A DNA stretch of 64,000 bases from Clostridia bacterium (GTDB taxonomy: Bacteria > Bacillota > DTU086): NCBI GenBank assembly GCA_012523575.1, contig JAAYIF010000052.1:14635-78634 (forward strand). The letters are read 5' to 3'. The notes beneath the pieces were generated by a model. That model ran no database searches. It was not told the DNA's origin and saw nothing but the letters and a program-made list of their open reading frames with translations. The first letter of the stretch is position 1. The number at the start of each line of letters is the position of its first letter. Made by a program: the position numbers and the translations under genes. This document shows, in pieces, positions 1-63,125 of this stretch.

Positions 1-918
1 ATGAATAAAAAGAGGACTTGCCCTTCTTTTGTTTACAGAACCCGAAGGTTCAACTGAAGCACTTTTTCCAATATTCCTAAAATAATAATTGTGGGGGAGC
101 CCAAAAACGGCTCTGCTTGGATGTTCATTTATTTCTGCACCCCTTAAAAAATCCAAAACAAGAGCACCATCCCCCTCTTTTCTACCAACTTCCCGCCGAT
201 AATTTATAAATTCAATGCCAATTTTATTTAAGAGTCTAAGGGCGTTTTCACTGCTGCTTCCATCAACAACACTGACTCTCGTTTGGCTGCTGAAAGAGGT
301 ATACGGGGGAAAATCATCTTCTTCGGATAAATCCCTTATACTCAGTTCAGAAATAAAACTTCTAATGCGCTCCTCTAATTCCTCAAAAGAATTTGGTTTT
401 GACCAAACCCGCTTCCCGTCAATCTCAAGATTAGTTAAGGTAAGGGAGCCAAACCCCCTTCGAGAGCGTGAACCTGCACCCCCAAAAAGACCCAATGCTG
501 TAAGCGACTTTTTTAGATAGTCTATATCTTCATCAGTGACCTTCTTTTTACGATGTTCTCTAAACTTAAGCTCCAATGTAAATCTGTCCCCGGGCTGAAA
601 AAATTTGCGGGAGCCGTAAGTTCCATACCCGAGATATGAAAGGCCTATGGGCTTTTGGGAATCTGGAACTCCAATTTTTAAATCACTGCTTTGACTGGAA
701 AAAAGAAACTTTCCCTGACCATCTGCACTTCCAAAAAGCTCCTTTTCTTTTTCCCATATTTCTTCAACAGACCTCATAGAAGGCCAAGCCACCGCCCTAA
801 ACCAAAAACGTACCAAACCCTTAATACTCGGAACTCTGAGCTCGGGATCTGCACATTTGTCGTGCACCGCACCCCCCATAAAAAGCGGGGTCGTTATCAG
901 GTATTCAGCCCTTATCAT
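1..918 (-). CDS. cmr1: Type III-B CRISPR RAMP protein, likely Cmr1 (5' part; continues beyond window start)
   Basis: Reverse-strand translation from ATG at 916-918 (AAAGGAGG RBS upstream) gives MIRAEYLITTPLFMGGAVHDKCADPELRVPSIKGLVRFWFRAVAWPS...GLFGGAGSRSRRGFGSL. The 'SIKGxxRFWFRA' motif and the glycine-rich loop are RAMP/Cmr1 hallmarks. No in-window stop, which is why it is absent from the ORF track. Confidence 0.6.
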   Translation of the reverse strand, partial: MIRAEYLITTPLFMGGAVHDKCADPELRVPSIKGLVRFWFRAVAWPSMRSVEEIWEKEKELFGSADGQGKFLFSSQSSDLKIGVPDSQKPIGLSYLGYGTYGSRKFFQPGDRFTLELKFREHRKKKVTDEDIDYLKKSLTALGLFGGAGSRSRRGFGSLTLTNLEIDGKRVWSKPNSFEELEERIRSFISELSIRDLSEEDDFPPYTSFSSQTRVSVVDGSSSENALRLLNKIGIEFINYRREVGRKEGDGALVLDFLRGAEINEHPSRAVFGLPHNYYFRNIGKSASVEPSGSVNKRRASPLFIH

Positions 919-1211
919 TTGATAGAAGCTATCCTCCTTTAAAAAACTTAAAATTGTTCATTTCATAGTCCACTACAGAACTAAACGTTACCATAAATAG
1001 CCGTTATTTCCATCATAACTTCCTACTCTTTTATTTAGTAGGTAATTACTAAACAGCGGCATAAAAAATAAAACAGCGAAACTTGCAAGTCCTAGACTGC
1101 GTTTCCTGCGTTATTTTCTAATTTGACATATATTTCTATAATCCTCCTATTTTAATGCATTAAAGGAATATTTAAGCATTTCTGGGAAATATCCAAAAAA
1201 ATAAAGAAATA

Positions 1212-1258
1212 TCTAAAAAAACAACAAAAAAAGGAACCCCCGTTAAGGATGGTTCCTT
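1212..1258 (-). terminator. Rho-independent terminator after csx1
   Basis: Minus-strand hairpin AAGGAACC-ATCCTTAACGGG-GGTTCCTT followed by a T-run. Confidence 0.6.
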
Positions 1259-1279
1259 AAAAATTTCATGTTTTTTGTT

Positions 1280-2704
1280 TTAACTGCTATTTTCGGGCAA
1301 TTGCATACTGCCTGGCAACCTTTTTATTTCTTCAGGTAAATTACTTGTAAAAAGCAGTTTGCGAATTTCTTTTATATGGTTTCCAAGATTCCATTCTTTT
1401 ACATTCCTAACCTCTGCAAATCCCGCGTGGGCAATTAAATTCCTAATGGAGTTTATTTCAGAAAACTCGCAATGGAGTTTCTTCAGCGGCGAACCATCGG
1501 GTTCATTAGCAAAATTTTTAAAAAGTTTTTTCGCCTTTTCACGATCATCCTTATTTGTAATAGATACATCTACTCCTGAACTTTTATATAATTCCAAGAT
1601 CTTTGTAATTATAGCTTCTGCTAGGCAGATATAGGAGCTGGAATATCGTTTGTTTTCATAGTACCATTCAGCCAGTCTAAATTGAAATTCTGAATTGGAA
1701 CTTAAGCCGTGGAATCTTTTAGCAAAATCCTCTACGTAAGGCAGCAAATACCTGAAAGCCAGATATTCCGGTGTATCAATTTTCGCCTTTTTACTTTCCA
1801 GCAGATTATTTAGTTTGTCTACGTTGCTTCTTAAATTTTTCAAAGAATTTAGGTTAATTAAATCGGAAATGTTTTTTATTATTTCACTTGTTTCTTCGTC
1901 ATTAATTAATTCGGATATAAGGTAACCGTTGCCGTAATTAATGAAATCATAAGTTGCTTTAATCCATTTGGATATGGTAAAAAGCAGCTTCAAATCCACT
2001 ATTTTTGAATAACCAATTTCTCTGCGAACCTCAAGCATTCCGTAATACACGCTTTTAAGTTTTATATTTTTATATTTCAAAGTCTCAAGGAAATCAAGCA
2101 TTACAAACATAAAAATAGGAATGGACCGGAAAGAGTGAGTGATGTCCAGGTAAACTTCATCACCTTCTTTTAAATTATCTGCTATGTTCATGAAAGTTTT
2201 AAAATTCTTAATTAACTCTTCATCTTTCATTCCGTAATCCATTAAAAAACATCTGCTTCCACCCTCAGCATCAGAACGAAGTTTTTTCAAGTAAGCATCT
2301 ATAACCTCACTAACCTTTTTAAGATCATTCTCACTCACTTTGTTAGGCATACCATGTTTATAATTTTCTACTTTCGTGCCTAGATCTGTATAAAAATTAT
2401 CGTCAATATATACATCTGCATTCTGAGCAAAATAAAGATAAACCTCTTCCCACATGGATTTTTCTGTGCCCACTAGAATAACTTTATCAATCTTTAAATG
2501 AGTGGCCAGCGCTGCAGCAACAAAAGAAGTCACGTAACCTTTACCATTTTCCGAAAATCTATATTCAGTTTTTTGGTATTCCCTTATCTGAAATGGAACA
2601 TTATCCTGCATAACTGCATCGATCGACCGCTCATTTATGCCATTTGGTACTTTTTTGATAATGGGCTGACCTGCACCAATGGCAGATATAAGCACCTTAG
2701 ACAT
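1280..2704 (-). CDS. csx1: CRISPR-associated CARF–HEPN protein Csx1 (cyclic-oligoadenylate sensor/RNase family)
   Basis: 474 aa. N-terminal CARF-type 'DITHSFRSIP' loop (DxTHGFR-like). C-terminal HEPN Rx4-6H motif 'RNLIAH'. Adjacent to cmr1. Confidence 0.75.
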   Translation of the reverse strand: MSKVLISAIGAGQPIIKKVPNGINERSIDAVMQDNVPFQIREYQKTEYRFSENGKGYVTSFVAAALATHLKIDKVILVGTEKSMWEEVYLYFAQNADVYIDDNFYTDLGTKVENYKHGMPNKVSENDLKKVSEVIDAYLKKLRSDAEGGSRCFLMDYGMKDEELIKNFKTFMNIADNLKEGDEVYLDITHSFRSIPIFMFVMLDFLETLKYKNIKLKSVYYGMLEVRREIGYSKIVDLKLLFTISKWIKATYDFINYGNGYLISELINDEETSEIIKNISDLINLNSLKNLRSNVDKLNNLLESKKAKIDTPEYLAFRYLLPYVEDFAKRFHGLSSNSEFQFRLAEWYYENKRYSSSYICLAEAIITKILELYKSSGVDVSITNKDDREKAKKLFKNFANEPDGSPLKKLHCEFSEINSIRNLIAHAGFAEVRNVKEWNLGNHIKEIRKLLFTSNLPEEIKRLPGSMQLPENSS

Positions 2705-2888
2705 AACTCCAGCCTCCTATCCCTTCTTTTTTATTTTTTTATTCCTCATAGGTAGGCTGGAAACATAAAAGAATGAATTGATAACAGTTTTTTACGGCTT
2801 ATCTATATTCCAAAGTAAATCAGTTTCATTTAAAACTGCCTTTGCATATAGTGTATCAGCATAATGGTACAGCAAGGAGGTAATAAAT

Positions 2889-3455
2889 TTGACTGAGCAT
2901 ACACGTGAAGCGGTACCTGCCACTGCCGGGCGGGTTCCAAATCCACCAAAGGAGTGCAGCGGTCAGCTTTATACTGTCCAGGCTTCTGATTCCCTTTTCA
3001 AGATTGCCCGCAGATTTGGAGTTACCGTTGAAGCGATACTGGCAGCCAACCCTCAGATTGTAAACCGCGACGTCATTTTTATCGGCCAGGTTATCTGCAT
3101 ACCCTCCGGGGGACCACAACCTCCCGGTCAGTTTCGCGTTCTAACACTCAGATTTTTGACCGAGGAAGGCCAACCGCTGCCCACGGAGGGTGGAGCGGTT
3201 CAGCTCATAGAACGTGTTATTGTCCGAGCTACCTTTACTCGTCCGGTATCAAGAGCTTTCTTTTTCCTGGAACCAACTGGCACGGAAACCTGCGAATTAG
3301 CCAGCCTTATTGGAGTGGACTGCCCCAGCGCAACTACGGGAGTTGCTGAAATACTTTGGCAGGTGCAGCGGGGAACTCTTGGCCGGGTATATGTGGTTGC
3401 GTGCATTGACAGTGTATGTGCAAAATCTGATGATGTTCTTGTTGTTCGTGAGTAA
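2889..3455 (+). CDS. LysM domain protein
   Basis: TTG start with AAGGAGG RBS. LysM motif YTVQASDSLFKIARRFGVTVEAILAANP. Visibly more GC-rich than its neighbours. Confidence 0.7.
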   Translation: MTEHTREAVPATAGRVPNPPKECSGQLYTVQASDSLFKIARRFGVTVEAILAANPQIVNRDVIFIGQVICIPSGGPQPPGQFRVLTLRFLTEEGQPLPTEGGAVQLIERVIVRATFTRPVSRAFFFLEPTGTETCELASLIGVDCPSATTGVAEILWQVQRGTLGRVYVVACIDSVCAKSDDVLVVRE

Positions 3456-3480
3456 TAAGTGTTGTAGTCTAAAAACCATG

Positions 3481-3506
3481 CCGCCATCCAAGCGGTCTTT
3501 TTTGAG
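3481..3506 (+). terminator. Weak terminator after the LysM gene
   Basis: Short hairpin CCGC-CATCCAA-GCGG followed by TCTTTTTT. Confidence 0.35.
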
Positions 3507-3591
3507 TTTTCCGGCTTCTAATCCTAATAGGTAGGCTCATTATCCTTTTGGCACTGAATTTCCCCTTACCAAAATGTTACAAAATATACAA

Positions 3592-3990
3592 TCATTCTTC
3601 AATCTTTATTTCAACTTCTTTTACAGTTCCCCTTTCCCTGTCAATCCTAAACCCCCGAAGCTCCTGGGGCTCCTCCAGGGACAATATAAGATAGACTACC
3701 GGATAAAAAGCCATGTTCACGTCTTTCTGAGAAGGATATGCAGAACCATGGGGGTGGGAGTGGAAGATAGCAACCATTTTCATATTCCTTTTTCTTATAT
3801 CCTTCATCACGGAAATCTGTTCTTTGGGGTCCATGAAGTAGCTATTTGGGCTTTTATCCACATTGGTCATAGGATAAAATATCTCCGCCCTGCCTTCCAC
3901 TCCCCCTATTAGACCACACGCTTCATTGGGTTTTTCCTTATTGGAGAAATCAACCATCCCTTTGTACATCTTTTTCGGTATCACAAACAT
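3592..3990 (-). CDS. JAMM/MPN+ (Mov34) family metalloprotease
   Basis: 132 aa. JAMM motif E...HSHPHGSAYPSQKD (HxHx7Sx2D). Same strand as metX-metY and 62 nt downstream of metX. Confidence 0.8.
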   Translation of the reverse strand: MFVIPKKMYKGMVDFSNKEKPNEACGLIGGVEGRAEIFYPMTNVDKSPNSYFMDPKEQISVMKDIRKRNMKMVAIFHSHPHGSAYPSQKDVNMAFYPVVYLILSLEEPQELRGFRIDRERGTVKEVEIKIEE

Positions 3991-4052
3991 TTTTTACACC
4001 TCAGAATCACAATTTTATTCGAATGAATTGAAAGAATTGTGGATGGTCCAAT

Positions 4053-5195
4053 TTATACAGCAACGGCTTCAATGGCGAGGAAAAACTGACGCAGTATAGC
4101 CCCCAGCCTCTCAAACTCCACAAGAAAGGCATCGTGGCCGTGGGAAGATTTCAGCTCCACGTACTTTGCCCTCTTGCCCAGAAAAAGGAGATCTTCCACC
4201 AGCTGTCTCAGCAGGTAAGGAGGAAAGAGAATGTCCGAGCTTATACCTATGCAAATTACAATGGATCTAATTCTCCGCAGGGCTTCTTCAAGAGAATCGT
4301 ATCCCCGGGCAATGTCGTGGAGATCCATGGCCTTTGCAAGGTAGATGTAGCAGTTGGCATCAAACCTTTTTACCAGTTTATCCCCCTGATAATGAAGATA
4401 GTTTTCAATCTCGAATCTTCCACTAAAATCAAAGCATTTTTCATCAGGACCGCCGAAATCCCTTCCAAACCTGCGATTCCACAGCTCGTCGCTCTTATAG
4501 GTTATCATTCCAATCATCCTTGCCAGGGCAAGGCCGCGCACCGGGCCCGGCCCCGGGTAGTAATCACCGCCGCACCAGTCCGGGTCCTGCATAATGGCCT
4601 CCCTCTGCACCGCATTAAAGGCTATGCACTGGGGCGTAAGCTGGGCAGACGTCGCTATGGGAATAACACAGTCCATATACCCCGGATAGGTAACCGCCCA
4701 CTCCAGGGCCTGCATGCCTCCCATGGAGCCCCCTATTACCGCAATTAAATGCTTAACACCGAGATGGTCAAGAAGCCTTTTTTGAACCCTGACCATATCC
4801 CTTATGGTAACAGTGGGAAAATCCATGCCATAGGGTTTGCCGGTTCTGGGATTTATAGAGGCCGGGCCCGTGGTGCCATAGCAGCTTCCAAGGACGTTGG
4901 AACAAACTACAAAATATCTGTTTGTATCGATAACCTTTCCGGGTCCTATCAGAGGGTCCCACCAGCCCGGTTCCCTGTCACCGGGGGTATGGTATCCCGC
5001 AGCATGGGCGCTGCCCGTGAGAGCATGGAGAATCAGAACGGCATTATCCCCTCTTTGGTTCAGGGTGCCGTAGGTTTCGTAAGCTACGGTTATTGGACCT
5101 AACTTTTCCCCGCTTTCCAGAACGAATTCGTAAGGGGAAAAGGCAAAGGTATACTTTTGGGTTTTCACCAGCCGGTCCATTAGGTTTACCCCCAT
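4053..5195 (-). CDS. metX: Homoserine O-acetyltransferase
   Basis: 380 aa. Alpha/beta-hydrolase nucleophile motif GGSMGGMQALEW. Typical MetX length and composition. Confidence 0.9.
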   Translation of the reverse strand: MGVNLMDRLVKTQKYTFAFSPYEFVLESGEKLGPITVAYETYGTLNQRGDNAVLILHALTGSAHAAGYHTPGDREPGWWDPLIGPGKVIDTNRYFVVCSNVLGSCYGTTGPASINPRTGKPYGMDFPTVTIRDMVRVQKRLLDHLGVKHLIAVIGGSMGGMQALEWAVTYPGYMDCVIPIATSAQLTPQCIAFNAVQREAIMQDPDWCGGDYYPGPGPVRGLALARMIGMITYKSDELWNRRFGRDFGGPDEKCFDFSGRFEIENYLHYQGDKLVKRFDANCYIYLAKAMDLHDIARGYDSLEEALRRIRSIVICIGISSDILFPPYLLRQLVEDLLFLGKRAKYVELKSSHGHDAFLVEFERLGAILRQFFLAIEAVAV

Positions 5196-5197
5196 TT

Positions 5198-6697
<1,500 letters not shown>

Positions 6698-6784
6698 AAG
6701 CGTGATAATTATTAAGTTTTATAAGGGCAGATTTTTTATTGGGATAAATTATAAATACCCAACTCCCATTTGTCAACAAAAATT

Positions 6785-7609
6785 TTATGGTTCACCGATA
6801 ACTTCGTTAAGGCTGCCTGTGCGGTATCCATCCAGGTCCAGGGCAACGTAATTAAATCCGCAGGCCTTAACCTCCCGGGAAATCCGACGCAGCAGTTCCG
6901 GTTTCAATATCCCGGCCATCTCCTCGGGGGCAATTTCGATTCTGGCCACAGTCCCGTGGTATCTCACCCTCACGTTTTTAAAGCCCAGGTCAGCCAGCCT
7001 CTCTTCCGCCCGGTCAACCATTTCCAGTTTTTCCAGGGATAAGGGTTCCCCATAGGGAATCCTGGTGGCCAGGCAGGGTCTGGCGGGGCGGTTCCAGTTT
7101 TCCAAACCAAGAAACTTGGCTATTTGTCGCACATCATCTTTTTCTATACCGCAGTCAAGCAGAGGACTTCTAACCATTTCAAAGCTCCGGACAGCCTCAA
7201 GGCCGGGGCGGTAATCCCCGGTGTCCGAGCTGTTGGACCCCTCCAGCACATACCTGTAGCCTTCACGGCGGGCCACTTCCGTCAGCAGCTCAAAGGAACG
7301 CCGCTTGCAGTGGTAACAGCGTTGGGGGGTGTTTGCCACAATCTGCGCATCCTGCAGTTCATTGGTCTCAATGATTCGGTGAGGCACTTGCAATTCCCGG
7401 GCAATCCTTTGGGCGTCTTCCAGATCCCCGTGGGGTATGAGGGGAGAACGCAACGTCACGGCCAGAATGTTCCGTTTCCCAAGGCAGTCGGCGGAAACCT
7501 TTAGCACAAGGGAGCTGTCCACCCCGCCGGAAAAGGCAACCATAACCCTTTCCAGCTGTTTAATATAAAGGGAAAGGTTTGCTAGCTTTTCCTCCAGTTG
7601 TTTATCCAT
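6785..7609 (-). CDS. LarE-like PP-loop ATPase / sulfur transferase (TIGR00268 family)
   Basis: 274 aa. PP-loop SGGVDSS. Strong overall similarity to LarE, including the conserved Cys in 'PCLATRIPYG' (equivalent to the LarE catalytic Cys). Additional CxxC (RCYHCK). Confidence 0.8.
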   Translation of the reverse strand: MDKQLEEKLANLSLYIKQLERVMVAFSGGVDSSLVLKVSADCLGKRNILAVTLRSPLIPHGDLEDAQRIARELQVPHRIIETNELQDAQIVANTPQRCYHCKRRSFELLTEVARREGYRYVLEGSNSSDTGDYRPGLEAVRSFEMVRSPLLDCGIEKDDVRQIAKFLGLENWNRPARPCLATRIPYGEPLSLEKLEMVDRAEERLADLGFKNVRVRYHGTVARIEIAPEEMAGILKPELLRRISREVKACGFNYVALDLDGYRTGSLNEVIGEP

Positions 7610-8696: not shown

Positions 8697-8736
8697 AATA
8701 TTCCCCAGGCAGCAATTGCAGTCCGGGGAATATTGA
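8697..8736. promoter_or_regulatory. Palindrome in the cysK/hypothetical divergent intergenic region (candidate operator)
   Basis: AATATTCCCC-AGGCAGCAATTGCAGTCC-GGGGAATATT. Perfect 10-bp arms around a GCAATTGC core. About 108 nt upstream of the cysK start. Confidence 0.3.
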
Positions 8737-8808: not shown

Positions 8809-8837
8809 TTGACAGGATAAAAGGTGAGTGTTATGTT
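8809..8837 (+). promoter_or_regulatory. Putative sigma-A-like promoter for the CorA-like gene
   Basis: TTGACA-17 nt-TATGTT. Confidence 0.3.
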
Positions 8838-8869
8838 ATGGTAAAAATATCTCAAGGGCAGGGTTTATT

Positions 8870-10234
8870 ATGGAAATTCCTAAGTTTACCTTTGCCATAA
8901 TTCCCTTCAAGTACAGCTACTCTTTTGATTCCATCGAAAAAATTGCTGCGGAAGGCGGCATATGGCAGGAAGAATGTTCTGATTACTCACGATTTTATAA
9001 ACATATTAATATCAACCTGGACAAAAGAAACCCCAACCGGAGTATTATTGAATATAAAGCTGTGCTGTCTCCGGAAAAAAGTTCTGAATTGGGTTTTTAT
9101 ATCTCTGATAAACACAAATATTTACTGACAGGCAGGAACGAAGCCGGGGAGTATTACCGTGGCACTGTATGGATTCCGGAAATAAAAATGTTTGTCTTTG
9201 ACACAAATATAGGATTTATCTCCTGTAACTTTATCTTTGAGGACAACATAGATTTTGAATCCATGTGTGAATTAATCTGTCTTATTAAAAAAATGAAGTT
9301 CCACCAGGACAATGAAAAAAATAAAACTCTTACCATGAGGCTCGAAGACCAAAGCAAGTGCATTAATCTTCTTGAAATAATTCAAAATACTCTATTGGGT
9401 GAAGGATTTAGTGTAGGTGCGGATTTGTTTTTCGACCGCAGCGATGTTAAACGCCGGGTTTCCGCAATGATGCTGAGCTCATTTCTGTTCGAGAAAGAAA
9501 TCAGTGAAAAGGAAGCTGTCATGTATCTAAGGCCGCTAAAAAGATCCCAGAACAAAACCCACGAAGTAGGTTTTTACAGGGAGGTAGATAAAGAGCGCGT
9601 TTTGCGGCCTTTTAAAAATATGTTCTGGGGATTTTCTCCCCAGGGTGTGGCCAATATCAACTATGTCGTAGAAAAAATCAGCAACGAAAAATTTATCAGA
9701 TCATTATACACCACTATTAAGAGGGAATACCTGTTCATGACCGTTTTTCTGCTAAATCAATCTTACACACTTATTGATTACTGTCACGCTTTCTCCACCG
9801 CTGCTGATAAGGCTGTTTCTCAAGAAGAGATACAGCGGATGCACAATTTTCGGCTTAAACATGTTTTTAACACCGTTTCGATCCTGGAGCATTATCGGGA
9901 ATACTATGAAAAGTTAAGGAATGCCTTGGCTATTGACAGCCTCCTTCATGAAGTGGATGAAAAGCTGGACTCCCTGTATAAGAAAAAGGAAGATCAAAGA
10001 GACGAATACCTCCGGAAAATCGAAAACAGAGTTGTAACACTTACCCTGGTTTTTACTATTCTCCTTGCAATTCTTGGAATAGTGTCCACAATGAATGCCG
10101 GGTATTATTTGTATGTGGATGTTGGCTTAAAAAATTTCCTGCTCTTATTTGTCGGCACCACTATAGCTTTAGCAGTAATTGTCTTTATAATTGTCATGAC
10201 AGTTAGAAAACTTCGCAAAACTCCTGATTTATAA
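8870..10234 (+). CDS. Hypothetical protein with CorA-like C-terminal two-TM module (divergent; 'TMN' in place of GMN)
   Basis: 455 aa from ATG 8870 (the ORF-track start at 8828 is GTG with no RBS spacing). Large soluble N-domain. C-terminus has coiled-coil–TM1(…LGIVSTMNAG)–short loop–TM2–basic tail (RKLRKTPDL), the same order as CorA (…GIYGMNF…KKKKWL). AT-rich. Confidence 0.5.
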   Translation: MEIPKFTFAIIPFKYSYSFDSIEKIAAEGGIWQEECSDYSRFYKHININLDKRNPNRSIIEYKAVLSPEKSSELGFYISDKHKYLLTGRNEAGEYYRGTVWIPEIKMFVFDTNIGFISCNFIFEDNIDFESMCELICLIKKMKFHQDNEKNKTLTMRLEDQSKCINLLEIIQNTLLGEGFSVGADLFFDRSDVKRRVSAMMLSSFLFEKEISEKEAVMYLRPLKRSQNKTHEVGFYREVDKERVLRPFKNMFWGFSPQGVANINYVVEKISNEKFIRSLYTTIKREYLFMTVFLLNQSYTLIDYCHAFSTAADKAVSQEEIQRMHNFRLKHVFNTVSILEHYREYYEKLRNALAIDSLLHEVDEKLDSLYKKKEDQRDEYLRKIENRVVTLTLVFTILLAILGIVSTMNAGYYLYVDVGLKNFLLLFVGTTIALAVIVFIIVMTVRKLRKTPDL

Positions 10235-10319
10235 AAAGAGACCCATTCCCGGTTTGGGAAAGGGTTTTTCTGAAATTGCGAAGTATTTCTTTCACTAAGA
10301 TGGTGAACAAATTTACTCT

Positions 10320-10647
10320 CCTGCTTATTTCTCCTTTTTCCCAAATAAGCAGCCTTAACATATTCTCTTTCCAGCATCTTCCACCCTTTTGTGCTTAAAA
10401 ATTTGTCCGTCTCCAGGATATGGCCACAATCTGCGTGCAGGGCCATATTGGCATTATGTTTTTTAAGAGAATAATTTCCCTTAACACGAATCTTTTCTAT
10501 TATTCCGAAAATATCCCTTACAAACAGGGGAATCATCCTCAGAGAGGCTCGTCCATCTTCAGAATCATAGGATAAAACCTCAGCGCCCTTTTCACTGCCG
10601 ATATTTGCTGCTCTCCACCCGGACAAAGTTCCCACCATCTGCCACAA
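10320..10647 (-). pseudogene. Decayed 3' fragment of a livF-like ABC ATPase gene
   Basis: Translation WQMVGTLSGW...ALHADCGHILETDKFLS...EYVKAAYLGKRRNKQ aligns with the C-terminal ~110 aa of intact LivF at 12312-13064 (WQLAGTLSGGEQQ...ALHIADWGYVLETGKIVLS...EVKAAYLGKKRQ). The Walker-B/LSGGQ region is degraded and the stop is lost. Confidence 0.55.
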
Positions 10648-10769
10648 GTACCCCTAAGCTTGTGGAAAAACACTTATATCCAAACGCTGTTTGATAGCAA
10701 AGATAGCAAAAGGCTTACATTCCTTATAGATAAGGTAAAAAAAATAGCCAGTAGCATTTTTTGAAACTG

Positions 10770-11891
10770 TCATTTTACGAATCCATATTTATTTTTTAAA
10801 TACTCTTTTCTGATATCATCTATGCTTTTTAATTTACCGTTACGAATAACGTACCAATAGTTATAACCATTAACCCTTTTAGCTCTGCCCCCTTTAGCTT
10901 TTGCTGCGCAAGAATGCATATCCATTTCTTCTCCCCTAAAAACAAGTTTTCCGTTAGCTTTCAGTCTAGCCTCCGCTGATTTATTCTTTAGAAAAAAGCT
11001 TTCTCCTTCAATGAAATAACCGTCTTGTATCATTTGTTGCATAGTTACCTTTGGAGGCTTTTCATCAAATTTTGCTTTTTCTATATCTCCTATGTGAGTG
11101 ACAGTTGATGCTAATCTTTTTTCTCCGTATTCACAATATTTTTTGTCTTTTTCAATCATAATATAGTTTCTTCCCATTCTTTTTGCGACTACACCCGTTG
11201 TCATGGTTCCAGCAAATGGATCTAAAACAAGATCTCCAACTTTTGAAGATATGGCAATAATTCTGTAAAGAAGTTCTTCCGGTTTCTGTGTGCTATGAAG
11301 TTTTTCTCCTTTATCATCTTTTAATCTCTCATTACCCTGACAAATACCTATTCTCCAAACAGAACCTAACTGCTTTCTAACACCATTTCTGTATTCTTCC
11401 TCGCTTACAGTATCCTTATTGAGTTCTTTTGCGGTTTTATAATTGAAGGTAAACTTTGATTTTTGCGACTTTGTTGCCCATATCAAGGTTTCATGACTGT
11501 TGTTTAATCTTACTCCTCTAAAGTTAGGGGTTGGATTTTTTTTATACCATATAACATCGTTAATAAGCCAAAAACCTATTCTTTGCATTATTGCTCCAAT
11601 GGTATATATACATTGCATACCTCCTATTACCCAGATAGAGCCATCCTTTTTCAAAACTCTTTTACATTCGCTGAGCCATTTTTCTGTAAAATTTTCATAA
11701 TCCTCTAATGTTGTAAACTGATTGTCCCACTCGTCAACGCAACCATCAAACTCTGTTCCTTCCACTCTATGCAAAACTCCTTCAACTCTCATCCAATAAG
11801 GAGGATCTGCGAAAATTAGATCAACACTGTCATCTGGTATTTTTTTTAATTCCACCAAAGCATCTCCATTAATAACTACATTTTTTTCCAT
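10770..11891 (-). CDS. N6-adenine DNA methyltransferase, beta class, CcrM/M.HinfI family (predicted GANTC); orphan
   Basis: 373 aa. Motif IV DLIFADPPY precedes motif I LDPFAGTMTTG. Near-colinear similarity to CcrM (KRVLKDDG(S/T)(I/L)WVIG…WxLNDIxWxKxNPxPNFxG…HETLIWA…HxTQKPE(E/A)LLYR…LDPFxGxGTTG…) including a C-terminal extension. No adjacent restriction endonuclease. Confidence 0.85.
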   Translation of the reverse strand: MEKNVVINGDALVELKKIPDDSVDLIFADPPYWMRVEGVLHRVEGTEFDGCVDEWDNQFTTLEDYENFTEKWLSECKRVLKKDGSIWVIGGMQCIYTIGAIMQRIGFWLINDVIWYKKNPTPNFRGVRLNNSHETLIWATKSQKSKFTFNYKTAKELNKDTVSEEEYRNGVRKQLGSVWRIGICQGNERLKDDKGEKLHSTQKPEELLYRIIAISSKVGDLVLDPFAGTMTTGVVAKRMGRNYIMIEKDKKYCEYGEKRLASTVTHIGDIEKAKFDEKPPKVTMQQMIQDGYFIEGESFFLKNKSAEARLKANGKLVFRGEEMDMHSCAAKAKGGRAKRVNGYNYWYVIRNGKLKSIDDIRKEYLKNKYGFVK

Positions 11892-12311: not shown

Positions 12312-13064
12312 CTAAATAGCTGAGGCCTGTCTTTTCTTACCCAAATATGCAGCCTTAACTTCTTCGTTCTCCAGCAGTTCCTTCCCTGTTCCGCTCAAAA
12401 CTATTTTCCCCGTTTCCAATACGTAACCCCAATCCGCTATGTGCAGGGCAGCATTGGCATTCTGTTCTATAAGCAGTATGGTTACTCCGTTGTTGTAGAT
12501 TTGCTGAATAATGGAAAATATGCTTTTAACAATTAACGGTGCCAGTCCAAGGGAAGGTTCGTCCATCATCAGAATCTTTGGTCGGGACATCAGGGCTCTT
12601 CCCACCGCCAGCATTTGCTGTTCTCCTCCGGACAAGGTTCCCGCCAGCTGCCACGACCGTTCCTTAAGTCTGGGGAATAGCTCGTATACCCACGCCAGGT
12701 CTTTTTTTATTTGCTCTTTATTGTTTCTCAAATACGCCCCGATCAGCAGGTTTTCGTAAACCGTCAGGTTTGGAAAAACCCGGCGCCCTTCAGGTACCAG
12801 AGTAATTCCCCTGGCAACGATCTCCGAGGTTTTTAACCCGGTGATGTCTTCTCCCTGGTAGGTTATTTTCCCTGATTTTACCTTCACTAATCCCATAATG
12901 GAACGAAGGGTGGTGGATTTCCCAGCCCCGTTAGCTCCAATCAAAGTGACAATGCTGCCCTCGGGCACCTCAATGGTTATCCCCTTAAGGGCTTCAATAC
13001 CGCCATAGCTCACCGTAAGGTTTTCAACTTTAAGCACCTTCTTCCACCCCCAGATAGGCCTCAA
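12312..13064 (-). CDS. livF: Branched-chain amino acid ABC transporter ATP-binding protein LivF
   Basis: 250 aa. Walker A GANGAGKST, signature LSGGEQQ. Last gene of livJHMGF. Confidence 0.9.
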   Translation of the reverse strand: MRPIWGWKKVLKVENLTVSYGGIEALKGITIEVPEGSIVTLIGANGAGKSTTLRSIMGLVKVKSGKITYQGEDITGLKTSEIVARGITLVPEGRRVFPNLTVYENLLIGAYLRNNKEQIKKDLAWVYELFPRLKERSWQLAGTLSGGEQQMLAVGRALMSRPKILMMDEPSLGLAPLIVKSIFSIIQQIYNNGVTILLIEQNANAALHIADWGYVLETGKIVLSGTGKELLENEEVKAAYLGKKRQASAI

Positions 13065-28840: not shown

Positions 28841-28867
28841 TCTCTGCTGCAGTTTTCTCTACTTGCG

Positions 28868-29035
28868 AACTCACGCCGGACGTCTCTAAGCAAAGCGTAA
28901 TGGGCAAAACCGGGCCGCCCCAAATTCGGCGTCCATGCCTCAGGTTGGGGGCTGGCGCGAACGTCCATGCTCGCGCCCCCCGGTTTTGCCTTACGCTTTG
29001 CCAGAGCTGTTAGCCGGCGTTCGTTAAGTCGTTTC
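28868..29035. other. GC-rich ~170-nt long imperfect inverted repeat (candidate structured ncRNA or MITE-like element)
   Basis: Arms …ACGCCGG…GCAAAGCGTAATGGGCAAAACCGGG… and …CCCGGTTTTGCCTTACGCTTTGC…CCGGCGT… pair over ~55 nt around a ~50-nt core that carries its own hairpin GGCGCGA-ACGTCCATGC-TCGCGCC. GC-rich in an AT-moderate intergenic region. The overlapping ORFs are judged spurious. Confidence 0.4.
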
Positions 29036-35828: not shown

Positions 35829-36239
35829 CTAACTGCAGATTTCCTTAATGAAGACAACTATTTCTTCCGCCCATGAAACGGCTTGTTCTGCCGTTTCTGC
35901 CTCGACGAATTGATCGTCTTCGCTCTCAAAGTACTTCCCTTCCTCTGGAGAAATGTAATATTTATCAAGGTTCCTTGCGTATTCTTTTAATTTTAAGGAA
36001 AATTCAATTCCTTCTTTTCCGGCCCTGGTGATAAGCTGAAGGAGATAGGGTTCATTGCAACCATATATACCCATTCCCCTAAGCAGACCCTTTAATGCAT
36101 ATTCTGCAGCCCTTCTGGATTTATAATAGCTCCAGACATAAAAACTTTTAATTCTGTCATTTTCAGCCAATCTCAGCATTTCTTCCGCACTGCTCATCCA
36201 GCGGTCATATACATCCCTTTTAACTAAAGATATTTTCAA
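35829..36239 (-). CDS. HEPN domain protein (solitary; no adjacent nucleotidyltransferase partner)
   Basis: Start reassigned to TTG at 36239 (GGGGAGGG RBS 7 nt upstream). HEPN-like helices (…SSAEEMLRLAENDRI…RRAAEYALKGLL…). Confidence 0.6.
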   Translation of the reverse strand: MKISLVKRDVYDRWMSSAEEMLRLAENDRIKSFYVWSYYKSRRAAEYALKGLLRGMGIYGCNEPYLLQLITRAGKEGIEFSLKLKEYARNLDKYYISPEEGKYFESEDDQFVEAETAEQAVSWAEEIVVFIKEICS

Positions 36240-36552
36240 AAATTTAACCCTCCCCAATTTTTTTACAAAATTACTTCCTACGGGAAGCGAAACAGTCAAA
36301 ACACTTTTCTTACCTCAATAATACCACTAATTTTAAAAAATAAGAAATGCTTTTATAAATCGGCAAAAAAGTAAGAAAAAAAGAGAAAAAAGAGATCTGT
36401 CCCGGAAGTTTCTTGTCTAAAGCAATATATAAAACAATTCTTAATTTTGTGCTTACAGTAAATTTCTGTTAGCATATCAGCAATGATAATTATTTTCTTT
36501 TGGTATCCTGGAATACCAAAAATTTTCAAAATAAAAAAGGAGGTTTTGCTAA

Positions 36553-51890: not shown

Positions 51891-52071
51891 ATTAAACCCT
51901 CCATAAAAATTAAGCCTTCCGGACCAAAGGGTACGGAAGGCATAGCATCGACAGACCGTCTAACCTCCGTCTCGGTCCTCACAGGATCCAAGCGGAAAAA
52001 AATAGGATATTTAAATGTTAACACAGGAACGGTCCCCTGTCCATAAAAGCTCCTTTATATTTCACTCACTT

Positions 52072-62879: not shown

Positions 62880-62954
62880 TGGTGACCCGTAGGGGATTCG
62901 AACCCCTGTTACCGGCGTGAAAGGCCGGTGTCTTAACCACTTGACCAACGGGCC
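62880..62954 (-). tRNA. tRNA-Glu (UUC)
   Basis: Minus strand: GGCCCGTTGGTCAAGTGGTTAAGACACCGGCCTTTCACGCCGGTAACAGGGGTTCGAATCCCCTACGGGTCACCA. Anticodon loop CTTTCAC. CCA encoded. Confidence 0.9.
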
Positions 62955-62966
62955 GGAAACAAAACT

Positions 62967-63043
62967 TGGTAGCGGTGGTAGGACTCGAACCTACGACACT
63001 ACGGGTATGAACCGTATGCTCTAACCACCTGAGCTACACCGCC
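62967..63043 (-). tRNA. tRNA-Met (CAU, elongator type)
   Basis: Minus strand: GGCGGTGTAGCTCAGGTGGTTAGAGCATACGGTTCATACCCGTAG…CCACCGCTACCA. Close to B. subtilis elongator tRNA-Met. Could alternatively be Ile2 (lysidine), but the acceptor and anticodon stems match Met. Confidence 0.8.
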
Positions 63044-63050
63044 ACTTAAT

Positions 63051-63125
<75 letters not shown>

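Follow-up and report, generated by a model that had tools for sequence, protein, structure and literature searches.

Closest described systems and organization of the locus

The Cmr complexes of Pyrococcus furiosus and Thermus thermophilus are encoded by six-gene operons led by cmr1 and include a Cas10 subunit with a GGDD motif in the Palm domain. A Cmr1-led gene order and a GGDD-bearing Cas10 are likewise found in the CRISPR-Cas (clustered regularly interspaced short palindromic repeats and associated proteins) locus analyzed here, a type III-B system with an ancillary csx1 gene at the left edge of a 64-kb stretch of DNA (hereafter, the window; contig JAAYIF010000052.1) from an uncultured member of the Clostridia. 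Among the ancillary proteins of type III systems, the nearest relative of this Csx1 with a solved structure is Csx1-Crn2 from Marinitoga sp., a non-specific single-stranded RNase (ssRNase) that is activated by cyclic tetra-adenylate (cA4) (PMC11317161; PDB 8Y6Z, 8Y75, 8Y7G). The two proteins have in common the CARF-HTH-HEPN architecture, the DxTH(G/S)xR loop of the CARF domain and the R-N-x3-H motif of the HEPN domain, whereas the C-terminal Crn2 ring-nuclease domain of Csx1-Crn2 is missing from the protein in the window (474 vs 563 aa). More broadly, the class used for comparison consists of the Csx1 proteins of the TIGR02221/TM1812 family that are encoded in combined type III-B and type I-B loci of thermophilic Firmicutes and Thermotoga.

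Positions 1–2764 of the window can be identified, with high confidence, as that end of a canonical type III-B (Cmr) locus at which csx1 is located. The original prediction had placed csx1 and cmr1 at this edge, on the minus strand, as the border of a Cas10-based system that continues leftward, and open reading frames (ORFs) and translations confirm both genes in these positions. In the direction of transcription, csx1 comes first and is followed by cmr1; the initial 2.7 kb of the window constitute the outer edge of the locus, and csx1, its outermost cas gene, adjoins LysM, JAB and methionine-biosynthesis genes. The leftward continuation is supported by the GenBank accessions: Cas10, Cmr1 and Csx1 are numbered consecutively (NLO90106.1, NLO90107.1 and NLO90108.1, respectively) on a single 80,725-bp contig of a metagenome-assembled genome, and the numbering goes on rightward with the LysM protein (NLO90109.1), the JAB protein (NLO90110.1) and CysK (NLO90114.1). 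Because the accession numbering follows the window coordinates, cas10 is placed directly left of cmr1, just outside the window. The signature gene of type III-B, cas10/cmr2, thus belongs to the same locus (Pfam domains Cmr2_N and Cas10-Cmr2_palm2). This is an ordinary type III-B module accompanied by Csx1, and the GenBank/PGAP annotation already names its genes. The importance of the locus beyond correct annotation is small: it is a textbook type III-B system with a Csx1 that is predicted to be an RNase and an HD-less Cas10 that plausibly is competent as a cyclase.

Csx1: family, fold and predicted activity

The csx1 gene opens with an ATG at position 2704 and ends with a TAA at 1280–1282; a Shine-Dalgarno sequence precedes the start codon (Table 1). 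A comparison with the profile TIGR02221 (the cas_TM1812 equivalog) yields 188.7 bits, against a cut-off of 76.25, and the PGAP name for NLO90108.1 is identical; residues 184–208 match TIGR02549, the DxTHG domain, with 38.9 bits. The PADLOC profile CARF2--CARF_HEPN covers residues 1–451 (E-value 1.9e-125), and the PADLOC Csx1/Csm6 'CARF+HEPN' profile matches as well (E-value 6.9e-83). The original assignment of the 474-aa protein to the CARF-HEPN class thus holds in all these searches, and the motifs on which it was based are present, namely, DITHSFR at residues 187–193 in the CARF domain and RNLIAH at residues 421–426 in the HEPN domain. The CARF motif reads DITHS rather than DxTHG, with serine being the family consensus in the clade to which this protein belongs, and the HEPN motif conforms to the catalytic pattern R-x4-6-H (R421-NLIA-H426). 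Among 1.84 billion representative proteins searched, there are 3,014 relatives of Csx1, the nearest of them 50% identical. In an alignment of 89 sequences, five residues (D187, F192, R193, R421 and H426) do not vary at all, and at least 90% of the sequences keep T189 and H190.

A phmmer search of PDB started with the Csx1 sequence alone finds no true match, only a spurious similarity to hemerythrin. In contrast, the family profile retrieves Csx1-Crn2 of Marinitoga sp. (8Y75, 8Y6Z, 8Y7G) with an E-value of 1.3e-18, and the alignment pairs the CARF loop and RNLIAH of Csx1 with the DxTHG and R-N-S-V-A-H motifs of Csx1-Crn2, the latter with the residues numbered R401/H406 (PMC11317161). A single-sequence AlphaFold model was discarded due to its low predicted local distance difference test score (pLDDT 38.9) and replaced with an alignment-based AlphaFold2 model, which has a pLDDT of 92.7 and a predicted template modelling score (pTM) of 0.86. 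The best Foldseek match of this model is 8y7g, the complex with cA4 (E-value 1.8e-12, template modelling (TM) score 0.60, identity 18–19%), followed by Csx1 of Sulfolobus islandicus (SisCsx1), Csx1 of P. furiosus (PfuCsx1), Csm6 of T. thermophilus and Thermococcus onnurineus, SSO1389, and Csm6 of Enterococcus italicus (6tug); all 28 best fold matches in PDB are Csx1, Csm6 or SSO1389 structures. The model and these matches bear out the CARF-HTH-HEPN fold, with an additional N-terminal insertion at residues ~13–40 that is modelled with low confidence (pLDDT 52–74). Given that profile, motif and fold all agree, the membership of this protein in the Csx1 family is established.

By analogy with the structures found, Csx1 would be an RNase that depends on cyclic oligoadenylate (cOA), with cA4 as the ligand. 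It appears unlikely that Csx1 answers a different messenger, such as cyclic hexa-adenylate (cA6) or cyclic penta-adenylate (cA5), or functions mainly as a ring nuclease or a regulator rather than as a cA4-activated RNase. Compatible with this alternative are the identity to the cA4-bound template, which is only 18–19%, and the use of cA6 by Csm6 proteins of Firmicutes, such as that of E. italicus, which is itself among the fold matches; a Csm6 specific for cA5 has reportedly been found, too (PMC13187428). Nevertheless, the best profile and fold matches, Csx1-Crn2 and SisCsx1, all are cA4-activated, and the invariant arginine/histidine pair of the HEPN domain argues for a nuclease function, so that a cA4-activated RNase is the preferred assignment.

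Cmr1, Cas10 and the predicted immune response

The cmr1 gene is absent from the ORF list only because the window edge cuts its frame, as originally suggested: a 306-aa frame opens at the ATG at position 918 and leaves the window at base 1. The fragment matches TIGR01894 with 56.9 bits (cut-off 28.65), which identifies it as Cmr1 in agreement with the initial assignment; it also matches the Pfam RAMPs profile (E-value 4.5e-21) and the PADLOC Cmr1 profile (E-value 1.4e-25). The two sequence signatures noticed at the outset, SIKGLVRFWFRA at residues 31–42 and the glycine-rich loop GLFGGAGSRSRRGFG at residues 143–157, are both in place. The RFWFR motif and the glycine-rich loop are conserved among 120 homologues, with R37, W39, R41, G146, G149, R153, G155 and G157 kept in 119–120 of them. 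The full-length protein (P0001, NLO90107.1) consists of 376 aa and is 100% identical to the fragment over the length of the latter.

Cas10/Cmr2 (P0122, NLO90106.1), which is encoded outside the window, is a short protein of 652 aa (the median among 120 relatives is 636 aa). It contains GGDD at residues 421–424 in Palm2 and D379-G-D381 in Palm1, both kept in 118–120 of 120 homologues. The presence of GGDD makes second-messenger synthesis plausible, and judging by these motifs, Cas10 is plausibly competent for the production of cOA. Cmr2 of P. furiosus has an N-terminal HD nuclease domain that is absent from this Cas10: the Cmr2_N domain begins already at residue 5, the first 130 aa contain no HD dipeptide, and there is no room for an HD nuclease domain. 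Because Cas10 lacks HD, cOA signalling is probably, next to cutting of the target RNA, the chief means of defence, with Csx1 as the probable principal collateral effector.

What is established about type III systems in general suggests the following putative mechanism for this locus. The complex of Cmr1–6 with CRISPR RNA (crRNA) would bind complementary transcripts of an invader, and Cmr4 would cut the bound RNA, while target binding would turn on the Palm domains of Cas10 and hence the synthesis of cOA. The messenger most likely is cA4 because the nearest solved relative of Csx1 is cA4-activated. Binding of cOA to the dimeric CARF domain of Csx1 would cause allosteric assembly of the HEPN site formed by R421 and H426, and the activated Csx1 would then degrade RNA non-specifically, which might result in growth arrest or abortive infection.

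Comparison with related loci

A survey of 80 loci that contain csx1 homologues (L numbers here denote related loci), performed with tblastn and home-made hidden Markov models of Cas10 and Cmr1, is used here qualitatively; Cas10-like ORFs appear in only about 33 of the 80 loci because the profiles are specific for type III-B. The order of csx1 followed by cmr1 is found also in Thermoanaerobacter kivui (CP009170, L008) and Moorella naiadis (L010). In both of them, csx1 immediately precedes the co-oriented genes cmr1-cas10-cmr3-cmr4-cmr5-cmr6; in the window, it immediately precedes cmr1. The genes cmr3, cmr4, cmr5 and cmr6 are present in both these loci as well as in L009, in which a different CARF gene (CARF_Card1) occupies the position of csx1, and in L001, a metagenome relative (JGI 3300012949, Ga0153798_10001931). 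In T. kivui and L001, the cmr genes are followed by the type I-B genes cas8b-cas7-cas5. There are differences as well: Cmr1 of the T. kivui locus is only 45% identical to that of the window, and both T. kivui and L009 carry extra genes ahead of the CARF effector, namely, cas6, a CARF regulator of the Cas_NE0113 type and a small ORF, whereas here csx1 is the outermost cas gene.

Locus L001 shares with the window the flank metY-metX-JAB-LysM-csx1 and has the complete order csx1-cmr1-cas10-cmr3-cmr4-cmr5-cmr6-cas6, after which come the type I-B genes cas8b-cas7-cas5-cas3. The original prediction that the remaining cmr genes lie to the left is thereby supported at two levels, namely, directly by accession for cas10 and by synteny in L001 for cmr3–cmr6 and cas6.

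The identity between the window and L001 is mosaic. Csx1 is identical at 473 of 474 positions, whereas Cmr1 and Cas10 show 63% and 75% aa identity, respectively. At the nucleotide level, positions 940–4300 of the window form a 3.4-kb block with 99–100% identity, which comprises the 3' end of metX, the JAB and LysM genes, csx1 and the csx1-cmr1 spacer; the spacer itself is 99–100% identical, except that the final 100-nt bin, next to the start of cmr1, shows 94%. From the start of cmr1 leftward, the identity drops to 47–81%, and on the other side, at positions 4300–6700, it amounts to 84–95%, with about 88% for the housekeeping flank. This pattern suggests, from the sequence comparison, either a recent exchange of the 3.4-kb block or replacement of the cmr cassette beside a retained csx1; assembly chimerism may be the source of the nearly identical block. 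The combination of an identical csx1 with diverged Cmr proteins fits coupling through a diffusible messenger, which would let effectors and complexes shuffle independently.

On the distal side, homology between the window and L001 stops at about position 8735 of the window, exactly at an intact mini-array of two repeats and one spacer that is located in L001 at positions 996–1091, just beyond cysK. In place of this mini-array, the window contains an island with genes for a CorA-like protein and a methyltransferase.

Repeat relics, transcription signals and the state of the locus

The original prediction stated that the window contains no array; none was found in the 64 kb, and this statement therefore stands, but it has to be amended because solitary repeat relics are present. 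They belong to a family of 30-nt repeats (GTTTT.AGC.TACCTATGAGGAATTGAAAC, ending in ATTGAAAC) that is the same in the window and in the type III-B plus I-B loci of thermophilic Firmicutes and Thermotoga, and that builds large arrays beside csx1 homologues (L011, L013, L018, L030, L035). A sequence model of ten repeats (R1), run over the window unfiltered, gives three matches, all of them on the minus strand and without the 3' ATTGAAAC tag. The strongest relic, upstream of csx1, keeps positions 1–24 of the 30-nt repeat and has lost the tag; it matches the intact L001 repeat GTTTTCAGCCTACCTATGAGGAATTGAAAC at 26 of 30 positions. R1 detects it at 2741–2764 with 22.1 bits (E-value 1e-5, model positions 1–24), a permissive scan against the Rfam family CRISPR-DR2 gives 25.1 bits (E-value 0.12), and a shuffle control produces 0 chance matches in 100 shuffles. 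The match to the second relic is borderline (3522–3537, 9.4 bits, E-value 0.1), and the third one is found at 10719–10741 (14.3 bits, E-value 0.003, model positions 2–24). The relics are scattered among housekeeping genes and bracket the LysM gene and the met/cys cluster. The two relics on the csx1 side are shared with L001, in which the weaker one is located at 7452–7481, and in L019, too, the csx1 homologue is preceded by a relic similar to the strongest one.

In L018 and L035, the terminal repeats of the arrays match the same R1 positions, 1–24 or 1–25. Given that the terminal repeats of relatives are cut at the same positions, the relics resemble trailer-end repeats of lost arrays, and the most fitting interpretation of the tag-less repeat ahead of csx1 is a degenerate trailer-end repeat of this kind. 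Such relics among housekeeping genes amount to a record of array loss or rearrangement at the border of the locus. It is highly improbable, although the conservation of the relic upstream of csx1 might bring it to mind, that this repeat in the csx1 leader is a binding or processing site for Cas6 or a Cre-like element that couples csx1 expression to crRNA processing, together with a single cOA effector that is exchanged between, and serves, divergent Cmr complexes.

As a side observation, the 14-mer GTTTTAAATGAAAC at positions 2822–2835 of the minus strand, 58 nt upstream of the relic, looks like the 5' and 3' ends of the repeat joined together. The search of the window with the repeat model does not score this 14-mer as significant, and the resemblance may be due to chance.

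The spacer between csx1 and cmr1 presumably contains the promoter of the cmr operon. Its fold has a modest z-score of -2.2, and repeats in it are weak; in an Rfam scan of the spacer, no family scores better than an E-value of 0.2, and neither structured RNA nor repeats are significant. A GC-containing hairpin, AAGGAACC.UCC-UUAAC-GGGGGUUCCUU, begins 21 nt past the csx1 stop codon and includes an inner stem of 11 pairs, which is followed by the U-rich tract UUUUUGUUGUUUUUUU at 1215–1230; when the 96 nt that follow the stop codon are folded, z = -2.4. The hairpin with the U-rich tract is a plausible terminator of csx1, as originally proposed, so far as folding is concerned.

Several observations weigh against an intact, active type III-B system of the kind outlined above. 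A rule-based consensus scan reports neither a terminator after csx1 nor a consensus or otherwise convincing minus-strand promoter. The cOA species and the RNase activity of Csx1 are assigned by analogy, and the cmr promoter is presumed. For the source genome, the predictions of cmr3–cmr6, cas6, adaptation genes and an array derive from L001, whose cmr module shows only 63–75% identity. Finally, there is no functional CRISPR array within the 64-kb window, and the relics point to the decay of one or more arrays, which means that the locus could be partly degenerate.

Taken to its extreme, the last point would make the locus a decaying or orphaned remnant in which csx1 and cmr persist with no source of crRNA and no active immunity. 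This is a distinctly improbable explanation. Besides the lack of an array in the window, it would account for the two to three solitary tag-less relics at 2.7, 3.5 and 10.7 kb among housekeeping genes and for the retention in L001 of only a two-repeat mini-array on the csx1 side; moreover, the homologous cas10/cmr2 of T. kivui is split by an insertion sequence (IS) element with a DDE transposase (L008, 12313–13827), so such loci do decay. However, none of the three proteins Csx1, Cmr1 and Cas10 is truncated or lacks a catalytic motif, arrays in relatives are located on either side of csx1 (L011, L013, L018, L035), and up to 16.7 kb of the contig lie beyond the window on the left, a stretch that in L001 contains cas6 and the type I-B genes. 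A canonical type III-B locus with a decayed array on the csx1 side is therefore preferred over an orphaned remnant.

Table 1. Coordinates of the locus components and of other features in the 64-kb window
Feature	Position	Strand	Description
cmr1, 5' part	1–918	-	Codons 1–306 of 376; type III-B RAMP protein Cmr1, cut by window edge
csx1-cmr1 spacer	919–1279	-	361 nt, AT-rich; holds the terminator-like element of csx1
Intrinsic-terminator-like element after csx1	1215–1258	-	Hairpin 1231–1258, then U-rich tract 1215–1230; RNA fold
csx1	1280–2704	-	474 aa, predicted CARF-HTH-HEPN ancillary RNase, TIGR02221/TM1812 family; NLO90108.1
Shine-Dalgarno sequence of csx1, GGAGG	2713–2717	-	7 nt upstream of ATG; read from sequence
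Repeat relic 1	2735–2764	-	GTTTCCAGCCTACCTATGAGGAAT + AAAAAA on the csx1 sense strand; 31–37 nt upstream of csx1 ATG
Repeat relic 2 (weak)	3514–3543	-	Between LysM and JAB genes; 22/30 vs L001 repeat
SAM (S-box) riboswitch	6586–6697	-	97 bits; upstream of the O-acetylhomoserine sulfhydrylase/homoserine O-acetyltransferase genes adjoining the CRISPR locus
CorA-like membrane protein	8828–10234	+	468 aa; C-terminal coiled-coil and two transmembrane helices, TMN in place of GMN
Repeat relic 3	10713–10742	-	Beside the methyltransferase island; 21/30 vs L001 repeat
TwoAYGGAY RNA	28867–29026	-	Rfam, 67.8 bits, above gathering score
Small HEPN protein	35829–36299	-	156 aa; Pfam HEPN PF05168 only
pan motif	51963–52043	-	Rfam, 40.6 bits, above gathering score
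Three tandem tRNA genes	62883–63125	-	Rfam, above gathering score

CorA-like and HEPN proteins elsewhere in the window

Two further genes of the window, encoding a CorA-like membrane protein and a small, solitary HEPN protein, had been listed initially as possible ancillary effectors of the type III system. That either or both of them are extra effectors of this system is extremely improbable, and neither suggestion is supported. For the CorA-like protein, PADLOC profiles of CRISPR CorA-like proteins match residues 287–452 (E-value 1.8e-11), but this covers the C-terminal membrane part only, and there is no Pfam CorA match for the 468-aa protein. The gene sits between the relic at 10.7 kb and the csx1-side relics; however, it has the other orientation, and 6 kb separate it from csx1, with LysM, JAB and cysK/metX/metY/ATP-pyrophosphatase genes intervening. 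The described CRISPR CorA proteins are encoded in type III loci next to, or fused with, an NrN or DEDD phosphodiesterase or an S-adenosylmethionine (SAM) lyase, and answer SAM-AMP (PMC10600005). Here, no NrN, DEDD or SAM-lyase gene is a neighbour of the CorA-like gene, which instead adjoins cysK, the decayed fragment of an ABC-ATPase gene and a gene for a type II methyltransferase, and the presence of a CARF effector implies signalling by cOA, not SAM-AMP. Among 5.8 billion clusters, there are only six homologues of the CorA-like protein, none with a Pfam domain; the 60–65% identical ones that are on long contigs have no cas genes within 10 kb and lie, in housekeeping contexts, between small acid-soluble spore protein (SASP) or amino-acid-permease genes and a sigma-factor/penicillin-binding protein (PBP) cluster.

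The 156-aa protein matches the Pfam HEPN profile PF05168 with an E-value of 3.4e-14, which is the point in its favour as an effector. Nonetheless, this protein contains no histidine at all, so an R-x4-6-H site is impossible, and the motif position reads RNLDKYY. There is neither a PADLOC match nor a sensor domain, and 33 kb separate the gene from csx1. It is located in what appears to be an oxidative-stress setting: judging from the translations only, it lies between genes for a rubredoxin and a peroxiredoxin, with a metallo-beta-lactamase/flavodoxin-type (flavodiiron-like) protein also encoded nearby. Inspection of the translations, with no profile search, did not reveal any adjacent ORF of at least 40 aa that resembles a nucleotidyltransferase partner of the HEPN gene.

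The CorA-like gene is located in a variable region of low GC content (0.34–0.39). The island that it forms with the methyltransferase includes an inserted gene for a type II N6/N4 DNA methyltransferase with a RAMA domain (positions 10770–11891, minus strand), beside which no restriction enzyme gene is evident. The methyltransferase gene is flanked by a 180-aa ORF (10105–10647, minus strand) that is a degenerate duplicate of the LivF-like ABC ATPase gene located at 12312–13064, corresponding to its 3' half, with 43% identity over 113 aa.

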